A stretch of 24,229 nucleotides of DNA from an uncultured Candidatus Saccharibacteria bacterium (GTDB taxonomy: Bacteria; Patescibacteriota; Minisyncoccia; Phycocordibacterales; GWA1-40-21). The notes beneath the pieces were generated by a model that was not told the origin of the DNA, did not search any database, and saw only the letters and a program-made list of their open reading frames with translations. The DNA is taken from assembly GCA_964585835.1 (NCBI GenBank), contig CAZPFF010000006.1, positions 1-24,229 on the forward strand, written 5' to 3'. Position numbers and translations under genes: made by a program. Of this stretch, positions 15,687 through 23,180 are shown piece by piece. Every line of letters starts with the position of its first letter. The first letter of the stretch is position 1.

Positions 15687-17111
15687 TTATTTATCTTCTT
15701 TTTTAACCATCTTTAACTTCAAATCGCGAAGTTGCTCGTCAGCCACAACACCCGGAGCATTCATCATGAGGTCTTGCATTTCACCAGTTTTAGCAAAGGC
15801 AATCACTTCACGAATGTTTGGTTCATTTTCCATAATCATCATCAGGCGGTCAAAGCCCCAAGCAATACCACCGTGTGGAGGTACACCAAACGAGAAGGAC
15901 TTCAACATGTGGCCATATTCACGTTCAATTTTTTCTTCATCAAAGCCCATAATTTCCAATACTTTGTGCAGGGCTTCTGGTCTGTGGTTTCTAATACTAC
16001 CACCACCGAGTTCATAGCCGTTTAGAGCGATATCGTACTGTGTGGTCAAAATGTCACCAATGTTAGTCTTGTTCATAAGGTCTGCCATATGCTCTGGCTT
16101 TGGAGCTGAGAATGGGTTGTGTGAGAAAGTCCAACCACCCTTGTCATCCTTTTCAAAGAATGGAAAATCAATCACCCAACAGAAAGCTAGAAGATTTGGA
16201 TCCTCTTTATTCTCGCGAATATCCGGCTTATCAGAACCATATTTTTCAATAGCTTCCTTGTAGGTTAAACGTGGAAATGGAACTTGTTGAATTTTCTTGT
16301 TTGGGTAAAGTTCTGTTACCAAGGCAATCAAAGCCCTTTCGTTCACATCCATGACATCCTCACGCTTTACAAAGCTCATTTCCAAGTCCATTTGAGTAAA
16401 CTCTGGTTGGCGGTCACCGCGACTATCTTCGTCACGATAACAACGAGCAAATTGGAAATACTTTTCCATACCTGCAGCCATGAGAAGCTGTTTGTATTGC
16501 TGTGGAGATTGTGGCAAAGCATAAAACTTGCCTGGTTCAAGACGTGATGGAACGATAAAGTCGCGAGAACCTTCAGCTGTGGCAGTGGTCAAAGTTGGAG
16601 TTTCAATTTCTGAAAAACCTTCTTTGGTTAGAAAGTTTCTAACATAGGTTTGGACTTTACTGCGGTTGCGAATATTCTTTTGCAAACGTGGACGACGCAA
16701 GTCCAAGTAACGATACTTGAGACGTACATCTTCACCAATATCACGACCATCGCCACGGACATCAATCGGTGGAGTTTGAGCCTCGTTCAAAACAGTAATA
16801 CCAAGGATTTCAATTTCAATTGCTCCGTTTGGTTCGTTTAGGTTCACGAGTTTTTCTGGACGAGGGTTAACTTTACCTTTGACTTCAACTACCCATTCTG
16901 GACGAATGGTGTTAGCCACTTCATGACCTTCTTTGTTGTTTGGCAGTGCTACCATCTGAACCTTGCCTGACATATCGCGTAGATCAACGAAAATAAGTTT
17001 GCCGTGATCACGACGAATATCCACCCAACCTGAGATTGTAACTTCTTGTCCCACTTTTTGTGGTAAATCTTTAATGTATGTTCTTTGCATCCCGTTAGAG
17101 ACTTTAAGCAT
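15687..17111 (-). CDS. aspS: Aspartyl-tRNA synthetase, bacterial type but short (474 aa), lacking the GAD insertion domain.
   Basis: The flipping-loop and motif-2 region LPQSPQQYKQLLMAAG...FARCYRDEDSRGDRQPEFTQMDLEMSF is near-identical to the bacterial AspRS consensus. Motif 3 is GGGSIRNHRPE. The N-terminal OB-fold anticodon-binding domain is present. The length implies the ~100-aa GAD insertion is absent. Confidence 0.9.
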   Translation of the reverse strand: MLKVSNGMQRTYIKDLPQKVGQEVTISGWVDIRRDHGKLIFVDLRDMSGKVQMVALPNNKEGHEVANTIRPEWVVEVKGKVNPRPEKLVNLNEPNGAIEIEILGITVLNEAQTPPIDVRGDGRDIGEDVRLKYRYLDLRRPRLQKNIRNRSKVQTYVRNFLTKEGFSEIETPTLTTATAEGSRDFIVPSRLEPGKFYALPQSPQQYKQLLMAAGMEKYFQFARCYRDEDSRGDRQPEFTQMDLEMSFVKREDVMDVNERALIALVTELYPNKKIQQVPFPRLTYKEAIEKYGSDKPDIRENKEDPNLLAFCWVIDFPFFEKDDKGGWTFSHNPFSAPKPEHMADLMNKTNIGDILTTQYDIALNGYELGGGSIRNHRPEALHKVLEIMGFDEEKIEREYGHMLKSFSFGVPPHGGIAWGFDRLMMIMENEPNIREVIAFAKTGEMQDLMMNAPGVVADEQLRDLKLKMVKKEDK

Positions 17112-17204
17112 TATGTATTGGTGCCAAAGTCATTTTTATTTTAATAATATCTTGTTGTAAAAATATTTTCTTAATCTCCGTCTCTAACGGGACCAGTAAA
17201 ATAT

Positions 17205-17432
17205 CAAACAAAAACGCCCTCGCAAAAAATCAAACTTTGATTTTTTGCGAGGGCGATCTTTTATGAACGCGGTACCACCTCCTTTGTTTATCAGTATGCC
17301 GATAAACCTTATTTTATAACTCTTGTTCGGGTTATTCCGAGAGGTTCTACTCAGACTAAATTAGTCCTTTCTTCCCCAAGCTTGGCTTTTGGGCCAAACA
17401 GCCGTGTTGCGGTGTCTTAACTTACAAGGATC
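17205..17432 (-). promoter_or_regulatory. T-box riboswitch leader (tRNA-sensing transcription antitermination) controlling aspS.
   Basis: On the minus strand the sequence AAAGGAGGUGGUACCGCG matches the T-box consensus AGGGUGGNACCGCG with the UGGN bulge. The antiterminator topology is GAGG[UGGUACC]GCG-loop-CGC-CCUC. Its 3' strand is the 5' arm of a perfect 20-bp terminator hairpin (CGCCCUCGCAAAAAAUCAAA/UUUGAUUUUUUGCGAGGGCG, plus coordinates 17215-17255) followed by UUUUUGUUU. The ~220-nt leader has no ORF and lies directly upstream of an aminoacyl-tRNA synthetase gene. Confidence 0.7.
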
Positions 17433-17460
17433 ATTATACTACAATTCACCAAAATGGCAA
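17433..17460 (-). promoter_or_regulatory. Sigma70-type promoter TTGCCA-16-TATAAT (minus strand) that drives the T-box leader and aspS.
   Basis: Perfect -10 TATAAT (plus coordinates 17433-17438), -35 TTGCCA (17455-17460), 16-nt spacer. It lies immediately downstream of the terminator of the preceding radical-SAM gene. Confidence 0.6.
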
Positions 17461-17490
17461 ATTAAAACCCGGGATTGCAGTAATCCCGGG
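17461..17490 (-). terminator. Intrinsic terminator after the radical-SAM gene: CCCGGGATT-gcagt-AATCCCGGG.
   Basis: A perfect 9-bp stem with a 5-nt loop, followed on the minus strand by TTTTAATTT. It sits 10 nt after the stop codon at 17501. Confidence 0.8.
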
Positions 17491-17500
17491 TAAATACCCC

Positions 17501-18061: not shown

Positions 18062-18203
18062 TTTGCAATTCCTTTCTTTTGCTTTCTAGGACTTTGTGTT
18101 TAGAAGATTAGTCTATTGAATAATAGACTTTCACAATTAATATGTAGGAGATAATCTGCTCTCTATACTAGCATAACTAATACAATACGTCAATATCACG
18201 CAA

Positions 18204-18392
18204 TTATTCCAACTTTATAACCTGGTCGCAGTTACAGAGCAATTCTTCCCTATTATCTGCAATCAAAACTGTGTTATTTTTATCAACAATCTTCTTTAAG
18301 ACTTTGACCAAAACTGGTAGATCACTGAGATGCAGGCCTTTTGGTCTTATTTTCCAAGCATTAGCTCCTTTGAATAATACTGAATATACCAC
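18204..18392 (-). CDS. Small hypothetical ORF (62 aa from GTG). The open frame extends to 18439 with no canonical start and contains a degenerate P-loop (DDGKSTLL). It may be a gene remnant.
   Basis: The in-frame upstream extension reads INLPEKILTDDGKSTLLSVVYS..., a Walker-A-like GKST without the preceding glycine. No ATG is present, no RBS is evident, and there is no family match. It sits between the degenerate T-box/terminator element and the radical-SAM promoter. Confidence 0.25.
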   Translation of the reverse strand: MVYSVLFKGANAWKIRPKGLHLSDLPVLVKVLKKIVDKNNTVLIADNREELLCNCDQVIKLE

Positions 18393-18465
18393 AGATAAGA
18401 GTGTTGATTTTCCATCATCAGTTAAAATTTTCTCGGGTAAATTAATCTAATAATTATTAACGAAA

Positions 18466-18553
18466 AACGCCCTCGCAAAAAATCAAAGTTTGATTTTTTG
18501 CGAGGGCGATCTTTACTTCGCGGTATCACCTCCTTTGTTTATCAGTATGCCGA
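18466..18553 (-). terminator. Degenerate partial copy of the T-box 3' module (T-box sequence plus terminator hairpin). It functions as the intrinsic terminator of the two-gene ABC operon.
   Basis: An ~88-nt near-identical copy of the 17215-17303 element, starting right after the ABC gene stop codon (18554-18556). The 20-bp perfect hairpin (18468-18508) plus UUUUUCGUU is intact on the minus strand. The tRNA-acceptor-binding bulge reads UGAU instead of UGGU, and there is no room for a Stem I that does not overlap coding sequence. Confidence 0.6.
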
Positions 18554-20377
18554 TTATTTATGAAGTCCAATCTGTAAATCATACAATCGTTTGTACTCCC
18601 CTCTCTTTTTCTTCAATAATTCATCGTGTGTGCCACTTTCTGTTATTTTACCATCTTTAAAAACGAGGATTTTATTTGCTTTTCTGACAGTGCTTAATCT
18701 ATGAGCAATAACAAAAGTGGTCTTGTTTTGCATCAAATCTTCTAAAGCTTCAGTAATTAGGCTCTCAGTACTAGCATCTAAGGCTGAAGTTGGTTCGTCA
18801 AGAATCAAAATCTTTGGATTGCGAAGCATAGCACGAGCAATAGCAACTCTCTGCTTTTGACCAACAGACAATTTTATACCTCTTTCACCGACAACTGCAT
18901 CCCAACCATCTGCCTGCTTTTCAATAAATTCGGTTAGACCAATCTTCTCGCAACAAGCCTTTACTTCTTTGTCACTAACATTAAAACTACCGTAGGAGAT
19001 ATTTTTTCTAATGGAATCATTAAACAGTACAACTTCTTGTGGTACTACGCCAATATTGCGTCGCAAAAATCCGAGATCAATTTTTCTAATATCTACGTCA
19101 TCAATTAGTATTTCACCACTCTGAGGTAGATTGTAACCTGAAATCAAGTCGATGAGCGTACTCTTGCCAACACCAGATTCTCCCACCAGAGCAATCACCT
19201 CTCCCTGTTTAACATCAAATGAAATGTCTTTCAAAATCGGGGTATCGGCGTTGTAATAAAACTCGACATTTTTTAAAGATAGATTTCCACTAATTTGATG
19301 AAGTTTTATGTATCCCTCTGGTTGATAGTTTTCGGTCGGCATTTTTAAAATCTTTTCTGTTTCAGATATAGTCACAATACCACCCACAATATCTTGCCAG
19401 TCTGACCCAAACTCCATGAGTGGACCAAAAGCCAAAGCGGTGTAAGCATTGAAAGCCAAAAGACTGCCAATGGTTATCTGTCCAGAAATAACTAGCTTGA
19501 GTGATACACAAAAAACGGCAAACTGTGTGAGTAAAATAATTGATTTCTGATAAAAGTTTAAATTGATTTTAACTGAGTCTTTTCTCAGAAAAGACGGTAT
19601 CATCCAGTCCTTAAACAGCTTACTGATTCTAGCCTTTTCATACTTCTCAGTTCCAGACTGTTTGATGGTCAGTGTGTTGTCTAAAACACCACTAAAATCG
19701 TCCCAGACTTTGTGTAGTTTCATCCAAAATTCTTCTTGGAAGTTTGCAAGTGGCTTCACTCCAATATACATAGCAATCGCAAAAACTATTAAACCACAAA
19801 TTAATGTTAGGAGTAGTGTTTGGCTAATATGATAACAAACAACAAAAGCAATAATTAAACTCAAAAATTTTGGTGCCACTCTCAAGATGCCTGTAACAAA
19901 AGTCTGACATATCGTTGCCGCCGCCATATCCATTTTGTGAGTGATTGAGCTTGGATTATTATCTTTTAGAAAAGAAATAGGAAAAAGCAAAATCTTGCCA
20001 ATGCCCTCGGCCATATAGTCGCACCAAATATTATGATTAACTGCCAAGCTTCTGATAGATATCTGCCATTCAATTACGGCCGTGGTTATCTGCACAATAA
20101 TCCATGCCGCCAACAAAGCGCCATAAAGTGGTACCGAAGAAAATAAGATGCTTACATGCTTGCCCGGTGCAATTATTGAATCAAAAAAACTACCGGTAAT
20201 ATAGGGGATAAAACCATTACCGAGCGCGGCGAGAATGGTTAAAATCGAGAGCAACCAGGTGGCTCGACTGTGCATTTTGAGATATCTAATAACTGCACCG
20301 GCCGTTAATTTGATTTTCTCCCCATTAATTTTTTTGTTTTCTTCGGCCATATTTATAAAGTACTTAATATTATACAC
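18554..20377 (-). CDS. ABC exporter, fused transmembrane and ATP-binding domains (type I exporter half-transporter). Likely the heterodimer partner of the upstream paralogue.
   Basis: N-terminal 6-TM domain. C-terminal NBD with Walker A GESGVGKST, signature LSVGQKQRVAIARAM, Walker B ILILDEPTSALD and H-loop VIAHR. The start is either GTG 20377 or ATG 20350 (MAEENKK). Confidence 0.85.
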   Translation of the reverse strand: MYNIKYFINMAEENKKINGEKIKLTAGAVIRYLKMHSRATWLLSILTILAALGNGFIPYITGSFFDSIIAPGKHVSILFSSVPLYGALLAAWIIVQITTAVIEWQISIRSLAVNHNIWCDYMAEGIGKILLFPISFLKDNNPSSITHKMDMAAATICQTFVTGILRVAPKFLSLIIAFVVCYHISQTLLLTLICGLIVFAIAMYIGVKPLANFQEEFWMKLHKVWDDFSGVLDNTLTIKQSGTEKYEKARISKLFKDWMIPSFLRKDSVKINLNFYQKSIILLTQFAVFCVSLKLVISGQITIGSLLAFNAYTALAFGPLMEFGSDWQDIVGGIVTISETEKILKMPTENYQPEGYIKLHQISGNLSLKNVEFYYNADTPILKDISFDVKQGEVIALVGESGVGKSTLIDLISGYNLPQSGEILIDDVDIRKIDLGFLRRNIGVVPQEVVLFNDSIRKNISYGSFNVSDKEVKACCEKIGLTEFIEKQADGWDAVVGERGIKLSVGQKQRVAIARAMLRNPKILILDEPTSALDASTESLITEALEDLMQNKTTFVIAHRLSTVRKANKILVFKDGKITESGTHDELLKKKRGEYKRLYDLQIGLHK

Positions 20378-22220: not shown

Positions 22221-23180
22221 CTAGTCTATATCAACCCCAACGACTTTTCTAACCGTCAGCATCTTGGCCTCGGCGCGAGCGCGGGCCTTCTCACCACCAA
22301 CTTTCAAAATATTCAAAACCTCTGGCAAATTTTTAGCGAGTTCTTTGCGGCGTTCGCGAATCGGAGCGATAAAGGCTTTGATGTCAGCTGCCAAAGCATC
22401 TTTGAGGGCTTTGTATTTACCTTTATTCTCAGCATACAGCTTGTCTAGGTATTCCTTATCACGGAAAAGATTGTGAATAGCTCGAACATTTTTGGGTTTT
22501 TCGCCAGAAGAATCAGTGACAATACTCATAACTGCTTTTTGTATTTCATCATCTTCAGCAAAGAGCTCAATCGTATTGTTGTAACTCTTGGACATCTTCT
22601 GACCATCAGTTCCCGGAACAGTTTCAACGCTTTCCAAAATATAATCCTTTGGAAGTTTAAACACTTCTTCGTTATTAGCAAAAATACGATTAAACTTTTC
22701 AGCCACATCGCGAGCGTACTCAACATGTTGCTTTTGATCTTTACCAACTGGCACCACGTCAGCATCCTGAATGAGAATATCAGCGGCCATGAGTATCGGG
22801 TAATCAAAAGTACCAACGTTTATTTCCTTGTTCTTAGCTTCAGCATCCTTGTAAGCATGAGCACGCATTAGGTATGGCATGGTGGTGATGGTGTTAAAAA
22901 TCCAACACAATTCAGTCACTTGTGGCACATCCGACTGCTTGAATAGACAAACTTTCTTTGGATCAAGACCAATCGCTAAGTAGTCTAGAGCAATATCGAT
23001 CGTTCCCTGTTTTAATTCCTGACCATTCTGGATGAGATTCATGGCATGGTAATCAGCAATAAAAACATAACAATCATGAGTGTCCTGACTGTCCACAAAT
23101 TGCTTCATGGCCCCAAAGTAGTTGCCTATATGCGGTCTTCCAGTCGGTTTGACGCCGGATAGTAAAATTTTCTTTGACAT
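22221..23180 (-). CDS. trpS: Tryptophanyl-tRNA synthetase.
   Basis: Class I HIGH motif (PTGRPHIGNY) near the N-terminus and KMSKS (QKMSKSYNN). 319 aa, typical of bacterial TrpRS. Confidence 0.9.
   Translation of the reverse strand: MSKKILLSGVKPTGRPHIGNYFGAMKQFVDSQDTHDCYVFIADYHAMNLIQNGQELKQGTIDIALDYLAIGLDPKKVCLFKQSDVPQVTELCWIFNTITTMPYLMRAHAYKDAEAKNKEINVGTFDYPILMAADILIQDADVVPVGKDQKQHVEYARDVAEKFNRIFANNEEVFKLPKDYILESVETVPGTDGQKMSKSYNNTIELFAEDDEIQKAVMSIVTDSSGEKPKNVRAIHNLFRDKEYLDKLYAENKGKYKALKDALAADIKAFIAPIRERRKELAKNLPEVLNILKVGGEKARARAEAKMLTVRKVVGVDID

Follow-up and report, generated by a model that had tools for sequence, protein, structure and literature searches.

A candidate tRNA-Asn-responsive T-box with a truncated Stem I and an intrinsic terminator upstream of a GAD-less aspS gene in an uncultured Patescibacterium

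T-box riboswitches are a model system for RNA recognising RNA. The closest described relatives of the leader analyzed here are the ileS T-boxes of Actinobacteria whose Stem I is 'ultrashort' (TBDB class II), known from M. tuberculosis and N. farcinica (Sherwood 2015; Battaglia 2019; Suddala & Zhang 2019; summarised in the review PMC7583486). An apical-loop specifier has been described for these translational T-boxes, whereas T-boxes that act on transcription as a rule need a long Stem I, whose elbow-binding platform captures the tRNA quickly; only translational T-boxes dispense with it (PMC7583486). The same review describes the G.U wobble that closes antiterminator helix A2 at the bulge as conserved and as the primary steric sensor of the 3'-aminoacyl group. 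Most non-glycine T-boxes have an S-turn in Stem II and, with it, a IIA/B pseudoknot. In TBDB, RF00230 was used for class I, and the truncated-stem model was searched in Actinobacteria only. Here we analyze the minus-strand leader of aspS in a 24,229-nt stretch (the window) of contig CAZPFF010000006.1, from an uncultured Patescibacterium, for which a reading of the letters alone (the original prediction) had proposed a T-box. We estimate a probability of about 75% that this leader is a T-box riboswitch with a truncated Stem I, which acts by transcription attenuation, senses uncharged tRNA-Asn and controls a probably non-discriminating AspRS.

Judged by its features, the leader has the plan of class II. 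A short Stem I carries the specifier in its apical loop with a purine after it, a distal platform for the tRNA elbow is absent, and a K-turn-like region, a Stem II S-turn (GAA / AGUAGA), a predicted IIA/B pseudoknot, Stem III and the UGGN bulge follow with almost equal residue spacing (PMC7583486). In the actinobacterial ileS leaders the pseudoknot is formed with an F-box. Unlike class II, which is translational and sequesters the Shine-Dalgarno sequence, the window has an intrinsic terminator as its expression platform, with a 19-bp stem and a U-tract, about 115 nt before the start codon when ATG 17090 is used. The original prediction had recognised this hairpin, its U-tract and its position upstream of aspS, but had given 20 bp and about 95 nt. 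Further differences are that AAC stands before aspS where class II has AUC before ileS, that an additional hairpin occupies the position of the K-turn's 3' strand, and that the host belongs to the Patescibacteria, not the Actinobacteria.

With class I (RF00230; the B. subtilis tyrS and glyQS type) the leader shares its place upstream of a synthetase gene, the T-box core, an antiterminator in competition with a terminator, Stem II with IIA/B, a specifier ending in C (the 'C rule') and Stem III with flanking purines, here AUAAG on the 5' side and AA on the 3' side. In contrast to class I, it lacks the long Stem I with the AG bulge and the distal loop (the IDTM, a motif of two interdigitated T-loops) that provide the elbow platform; its Stem I has 8 bp and a 5-nt loop. 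The leader is a genuine T-box, and what appears to be new is that an apical-loop specifier is joined to an intrinsic terminator and that a G-C pair takes the place of the G.U sensor pair. The features are collected in Table 1.

Table 1. Coordinates of the aspS leader elements and of aspS within the window.
Feature	Position	Strand	Details
Promoter-like site, sigma-70-type	17433..17460	-	TTGCCA-16-TATAAT, 11/12 matches
Base of decoding domain	17378..17423	-	Closing stem AAGU (17423-17420)/GCUU (17381-17378), then K-turn-like UAA-GA 5' strand
Truncated Stem I	17396..17417	-	AGACACCG/CGG(C)UGUUU; 8 bp, one bulged C, 5-nt apical loop CAACA (17409..17405)
Probable specifier	17405..17408	-	AAC (17408-17406), an Asn codon, and conserved 3' purine A (17405); triplet tracks downstream gene
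Inserted hairpin	17384..17395	-	GGC-CCAAAA-GCC, extendable to UUGGC/GCCAA; GGCC...GGCC in the relatives' subclass; in minimum free energy (MFE) fold
Stem II	17341..17377	-	Lower helix GGGG/CCUC, upper helix GGACUA/UAGUCU; R1 match 31.9 bits, E = 2.6e-4
Stem II S-turn strands	17373-17368; 17352-17345	-	AAGAAA; GAGUAGAA; flanked by covarying helices
Predicted Stem IIA/B pseudoknot	17316..17340	-	IIA UCGG-AAUAAC-CCGA; loop AUAAC pairs GUUAU (17320-17316)
Stem III	17286..17307	-	GUUUAUC-GGCAUACU-GAUAAAC; RF00230 alignment, high posterior probability; in MFE fold
T-box sequence and antiterminator	17249..17285	-	A1 GAGG/CCUC, bulge UGGUACC (17277-17271), A2 GCG/CGC
Intrinsic terminator	17205..17255	-	Perfect 19-bp stem (17255..17215), 3-nt loop, then UUUUUGUUUG
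aspS, bacterial-type AspRS without GAD insertion	15687..17090	-	NF001750, 623.7 bits, two stretches

The T-box sequence itself is AAAGGAGGUGGUACCGCG at 17285..17268. The window holds two matches to GGTGGNACCGCG with at most one mismatch, where chance would give 0.06, and none of 100 shuffles reached two. The 7-nt UGGN-ACC bulge that defines a T-box lies between A1 and A2 (AGGAGG-UGGUACC-GCG...CGC-CCUC), so that both the consensus core and the antiterminator of the original prediction were recovered exactly, the core far above chance. Terminator and antiterminator are mutually exclusive, since the 5' arm of the former shares sequence with the 3' strands of A2 and A1. Alone, the antiterminator is worth -4.5 kcal/mol, while the terminator reaches about -38 kcal/mol, which suggests the usual T-box arrangement, off by default unless a tRNA stabilises the antiterminator.

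Upstream, the promoter-like site of the original prediction is in place, and -10-like boxes in relatives stand, by eye, at the same distance from the leader. Transcription probably starts near 17426-17424. The leader, first put at about 200 nt and free of open reading frames (ORFs), runs for about 220 nt, from about 17426 to 17205, and holds no ORF longer than 35 aa; folded as a whole it gives z = -5.8. The radical-SAM-like gene upstream has a terminator-like hairpin of its own (17491..17467, minus strand).

The evidence for the decoding domain is comparative. The best relatives of the AspRS, with 83-84% identity, come from metagenome-assembled genomes labelled Patescibacteria, Paceibacterota, Minisyncoccia or "Saccharibacteria", and about 30 of 80 orthologous aspS loci (loci are given here as L numbers) have a T-box core upstream on the same strand. 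Their leaders share a 5' domain made of a closing stem and K-turn (AAGC-AAUGA...GGAGCUU) and a Stem I of 4-8 bp with a 6-nt apical loop, followed by GGGG-AAGAAAG-[hairpin]-AGUAGAA-CCCC. A covariance model built on this domain, R1, found 27 instances in 81 sources, every one upstream of aspS in Patescibacteria of the Candidate Phyla Radiation (CPR). In the alignment, which was fitted to our own structure, 95.3% of the cells were paired and 13 of 14 pairs showed compensatory change; none of 500 shuffles reached the observed values, and slid partners gave 26-52%.

As an independent set, metagenome contigs were scanned for the S-turn plus T-box signature, yielding at least 120 stretches, and 80 loci were searched with R1. 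Among the matches listed, 57 of the 80 fitted the model, with GC contents from 0.28 to 0.73. These 57 leaders among the matches listed were paired in 92.8% of cells and had 222 double-change cells, compared with 66 in shuffles; slid partners gave at most 49%. R1 also retrieves high-GC ileS leaders with AUC loops. By a strict criterion, and among the matches listed, at least 29 of the 62 low-GC leaders built in this way have a terminator, including those of ileS in L116 and L140, as opposed to 3 of 21 high-GC leaders.

Within the aspS leaders, the window falls into a subclass with an 8-bp Stem I and an extra hairpin in place of the GGA strand of the K-turn, together with L002, L004, L015, L017, L018, L022 and L025. 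In all seven relatives the homologous Stem I helix covaries. Together with the base of the decoding domain that surrounds them, Stem I and the inserted hairpin form a three-way junction, and a plain MAFFT alignment of this junction in the subclass was 93% paired, with compensatory changes in 7 pairs (for example UGAAGCCG/CGGCUUCG, UGACGUUG/CAACGUCG and UGACAUUG/CAAUGUUG). The closing stem varies in concert among relatives too (AAGC/GCUU versus AAGU/ACUU). Where the relatives' K-turn reads UGA...GGA, the window has UAA-GA on the 5' side and the hairpin instead of the 3' GGA strand. The R2 model matched the decoding domain with 44.1 bits, the window itself being part of the R2 seed.

The original prediction had drawn Stem I differently, as a long stem closed by CUUGU/ACAAG with CCCAA/UUGGG and GACUA/UAGUC as internal helices and a candidate specifier in GGAAUAACCCGAAC. 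The complementary segments do exist in the sequence. However, this long stem is worth -10.9 kcal/mol, where the homology model gives -22.7 kcal/mol over that segment; the long stem does not appear in the MFE folds, and no relative conserves it. CUUGU lies at or before the probable transcription start and overlaps it, and CCCAA/UUGGG clashes with two helices that covary in relatives. The GACUA/UAGUC helix is real, although it forms the upper helix of Stem II and not a part of Stem I, and the AAUAAC from which a specifier had been proposed forms the Stem IIA loop and pairs with GUUAU. We therefore consider a long Stem I highly improbable and retain the truncated one.

Both helices of Stem II covary, in the genomic as well as in the metagenomic set, and its S-turn motif matches residues G37-A38-A39 and G67...A71 named in PMC7583486. 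A scripted search with a shuffle control located the pseudoknot of 4+5 bp, a result that 7 of 300 shuffles also reached. Relatives have differing pairs at the same position, UAAGC/GCUUA with an exact CCGUCA F-box in L001 and CUGCU/AGCAG in L028, and from the sequences we predict a IIA/B pseudoknot with moderate confidence. The leader would thus have both the S-turn and the pseudoknot expected of a T-box. A MAFFT alignment of the region from the pseudoknot to the T-box across subclasses failed, Stem III being missing in some relatives. In seven aspS leaders (L005, L010, L011, L023, L026, L029 and L032) a linker of roughly 20 nt, rich in purines, leads from Stem II to the T-box, and neither a IIA/B pseudoknot nor Stem III is present. 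In the review PMC7583486, Stem III is called indispensable in sensing aminoacylation.

Which tRNA the leader would read depends on the triplet in the apical loop. Across the 57 metagenomic (among the matches listed) and 27 genomic leaders, the loops read NN-codon-A, and the triplet tracks the downstream gene. AUC loops precede IleRS (TIGR00392 above cutoff for L116, L140, L156 and L160), and GAC loops precede AspRS (L130, L087, L142 and L139). AAC loops stand before an aspartate-tRNA(Asn) ligase in L127 (NF003483, 525 bits versus a cutoff of 353), GatC in L146 (59.6 bits versus a cutoff of 47.1), AsnRS in L121, L136 and L091, a GAD-less AspRS in L158 and full-length AspRS in L099 and L113. Because of this correspondence, we read the specifier of the window as AAC, which denotes Asn; with its 3' purine it matches tRNA-Asn, and its link to AspRS is indirect, through a non-discriminating enzyme. 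To judge from the loop triplets, the leader most likely senses tRNA-Asn rather than tRNA-Asp. The original prediction had left the specifier unassigned between a 5' GAC and AAU/AAC triplets on the 3' side of its Stem I. Neither is the specifier, the first lying in the K-turn-like strand and the second in the Stem IIA loop, but its question of Asp versus Asn was the right one to ask, and the evidence favours Asn.

A functional T-box that senses tRNA-Asp, with AAC tolerated by mismatch or with the specifier elsewhere, for example at the GAC at 17415-17413, would fit the identity of the downstream enzyme. It would also fit the 6 orthologous leaders whose loops read NN-GAC-A (L032, L036, L037, L042, L064 and L070); in 22 the loops read NN-AAC-A. 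In the bulge the variable base is U in all 21 AUC leaders listed, while GAC and AAC leaders have either C or U there, as G73 would allow; the UGGY bulge thus suits tRNA-Asp, although G73 is common to tRNA-Asp and tRNA-Asn. However, the 5' GAC aligns with the K-turn strand of the relatives (UGA-N) and not with their loop, and the window has AAC at the specifier position, as do 22 further leaders of aspS. Since loops with AAC stand before asnS, gatC and an AspRS of the non-discriminating type as well, AAC is read as Asn, and for anticodon GUC to read it, an A-C mismatch would have to be accepted at the codon's first position. We consider sensing of tRNA-Asp unlikely, and continue with tRNA-Asn.

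The gene under this leader is, as originally predicted, a GAD-less aspS. Its product is a bacterial-type AspRS with a Pfam tRNA-synt_2 domain and an OB-fold domain, and its match to the 590-position profile is split into two stretches, the GAD insertion being absent. The longest ORF begins at ATG 17111 (MLKVSNGMQRTY...), the start used by gene callers, and would give 474 aa; orthologues begin with MQRTY, so ATG 17090, which gives 467 aa, is the probable start. No Shine-Dalgarno-like sequence was found before either ATG. A sensor that reads tRNA-Asn over an AspRS suggests that the enzyme also charges tRNA-Asn, and thus that it is probably non-discriminating and feeds the GatCAB route to Asn-tRNA-Asn. 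The AAC leaders before gatC and before an AspRS of the non-discriminating type indicate that the same Asn-sensing logic is used for this route elsewhere.

An arrangement of this kind is reported from Clostridium acetobutylicum, where, according to Saad and colleagues (JBC 2012; PNAS 2013), an Asn-specific T-box controls the genes of tRNA-dependent amidation. That T-box, like ours, would read tRNA-Asn over genes of the indirect route, a non-discriminating AspRS and GatCAB. It is reportedly of the canonical Firmicute type with a long Stem I, unlike the window, where the architecture is truncated, the host belongs to the CPR and aspS is the only gene directly downstream.

We propose the following model. 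Transcription would begin at the leader's own promoter, and the 5' decoding domain would fold into the three-way junction, in which the apical loop of the 8-bp Stem I presents AAC and its purine, with the S-turn of Stem II and the IIA/B pseudoknot docked beside it. Uncharged tRNA-Asn (anticodon GUU) would pair with AAC, and its free 3' NCCA would pair with UGGU in the T-box bulge, stabilising the weak antiterminator against the much stronger terminator. RNA polymerase would then read into aspS. A charged tRNA could not make the 3'-end contact, and transcription would stop at the U-tract. In this model, binding of the tRNA, discrimination of its charging state and antitermination in vivo, as well as the relaxed specificity of the AspRS, are what we infer from the elements described above.

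Several observations weigh against this model. At the gathering score of RF00230 (93 bits) there was no match in the window or in 20 orthologous loci, and with permissive filters the window reached 40.2 bits (E = 1.5e-7), far below that score. In the alignment so obtained, Stem III, the T-box and the antiterminator were placed with high posterior probability, whereas the Stem I half was forced upstream of the promoter, onto the terminator of the neighbouring gene, and about 90 nt of real leader were treated as an insertion. The original prediction had named a sub-threshold score as grounds for giving up the T-box. The score does fall formally below the threshold, but we rejected it as disproof, because the alignment fails in the Stem I half only, and the shortfall is explained by a naturally truncated Stem I meeting a model that expects a long one.

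Stem I of the window rests on a direct reading of the sequence and on homology and not on a model score, since R1 skips it and R2 aligns it with five non-pairs. Its specifier loop has 5 nt instead of the 6 nt of relatives, and the helix needs a bulged C. For the first 100 nt, the homology-based fold (-21.8 kcal/mol) lies 2.3 kcal/mol above the MFE fold (-24.1 kcal/mol); the MFE folds of the window reproduce the remaining helices. The alignments labelled A2 and A5 (not to be confused with antiterminator helix A2) were fitted to our own structure, and the window is in the R2 seed, so their pair counts lean towards that structure. The A2 pair that closes the bulge is G-C in the window and not the G.U wobble that the review names as the primary sensor.

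On the side of the enzyme, neither tRNA-Asn, tRNA-Asp, asnS, gatCAB nor a second T-box was found in the window, in 60 related loci or in the 10 kb that flank the window on each side. No gene of the amidation pathway lies between the T-box and aspS in relatives; the intervening ORFs are unrelated accessory ones, and none is gatC. The AspRS sequence was rejected as an indicator of relaxed specificity: the motif reads RRD[HQ]G in practically all of the 80 orthologues (RRDMG in two), regardless of the specifier, and is therefore uninformative.

The shortened loop and bulged helix, as well as the G-C sensor pair, would also fit a decaying T-box, that is, a constitutive attenuator that no longer responds to tRNA, with aspS controlled elsewhere, for example by a hairpin over its start codon. 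The locus moreover appears rearranged, with a partial T-box copy 1.25 kb upstream, and that 14-bp hairpin, over -13 to +1 of the start codon, is unique to the window. However, the other elements are intact, including the promoter (11/12), the exact S-turn motifs, the pseudoknot, Stem III, the exact T-box core and the perfect terminator stem, and a constitutive terminator of -38 kcal/mol before an apparently essential gene would be strongly deleterious. The G-C pair, for its part, is common to nearly all members of the family and so is no lesion specific to the window: the A2 closing pair is G-C or A-U in about 29 of 30 CPR aspS leaders and in 21 of 36 low-GC metagenomic leaders listed, and stays G.U in 17 of 21 high-GC leaders listed. 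The G.U pair is a conserved feature of T-boxes rather than a defining one. Decay is, in our judgement, an improbable explanation, and we keep to a tRNA-Asn-responsive T-box. The region is 100% identical over its whole 1.48 kb, including the 5-nt loop, the bulged C and the neighbouring oddities, in two assemblies from different samples, one of which is possibly the source of the window itself.

The partial copy of the 3' half of the T-box lies at 18452-18554 (minus strand), about 1.25 kb upstream of the aspS T-box, and is 92-97% identical to 17199-17303. It holds the Stem III loop and 3' strand, the T-box and the terminator, lacks a decoding domain and has UGAU instead of UGGU in the bulge. It begins at the last base of the stop codon of an ABC-transporter gene and is probably merely the terminator of that gene; it points to a local duplication or rearrangement. 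The roughly 390 nt between this remnant and the radical-SAM-like gene (18062-18450, minus strand) contain short ORFs only, with a 62-aa gene called in one assembly. By eye, these ORFs resemble the C-terminal fragment of a larger gene, consistent with a rearranged locus.

The hairpin at the start of aspS (17089-17193, minus strand) lies between the T-box terminator and the gene. It has a perfect 14-bp stem, a 77-nt AT-rich loop, an energy of -27 kcal/mol and z = -4.4; its 3' arm extends from -13 to +1 relative to the probable start codon, and it is identical in the two assemblies. No copies were present in 200 loci compared, and the window holds no significant second copy, so a repeated mobile element was rejected. 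The hairpin may add translational control as a second layer, or it may be left over from an insertion. In ten relatives (L002, L004, L005, L010, L011, L017, L018, L023, L026 and L037), unrelated accessory ORFs follow the T-box terminator and precede aspS; judged by eye, among them are a 73-aa YKHSKTGNLY protein, a RhuM-like protein of about 330 aa, an HD-domain-like protein and a small Cys-rich protein. Such ORFs would fall under tRNA-Asn control.

Other synthetase genes and neighbours are also unusual. Within about 8 kb of a reduced genome stand four genes for aminoacyl-tRNA synthetases of class Ib (Trp/Tyr-type), with products of 406, 347, 403 and 319 aa, at 22221-23180 of the window and at 4007-7695 of L204, which is on the same contig upstream of the window; no T-box was detectable on any of them. 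The IleRS genes of L140 (674-4246) and L159 (10714-13035), which follow short-Stem-I AUC T-boxes, have a His_Phos_1 (histidine-phosphatase) domain inserted in the middle of the synthetase. At 4396-6906 (plus strand) the window encodes an 836-aa ORF with no NCBIfam match, which hits Pfam MVP_shoulder and, faintly, Vault_3; a domain like that of the major vault protein is unexpected in a Patescibacterium.

In the literature searched, no paper linking T-box riboswitches with CPR, Patescibacteria, Parcubacteria or Saccharibacteria was found, and an earlier description may exist. Since the family lies below the Rfam threshold and outside the phylum covered by the truncated-stem search of TBDB, T-box regulation is probably under-annotated in Patescibacteria. 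More tentatively, and with doubt, we suggest that these leaders form a widespread class of T-boxes, apparently not yet described, that occurs in Patescibacteria and in further uncultured bacteria of low GC. Such a class would combine an ultrashort Stem I and an apical-loop specifier with co-transcriptional termination and no elbow platform, often with a Watson-Crick pair in place of the G.U sensor and in some cases without Stem III, and here it would couple AspRS synthesis to tRNA-Asn charging. If true, this would contradict the view that elbow contact is essential for transcriptional T-boxes. A family with an apical-loop specifier and a strong terminator, often without the wobble sensor pair, offers natural test cases for the requirement of a long Stem I. 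Biologically, a switch that reads Asn and governs AspRS is understandable if this enzyme is non-discriminating and GatCAB receives its Asp-tRNA-Asn; the regulated step would then be the formation of Asn-tRNA-Asn through a GAD-less, non-discriminating AspRS, and the switch would be indirect evidence on how Asn-tRNA is made in reduced genomes.

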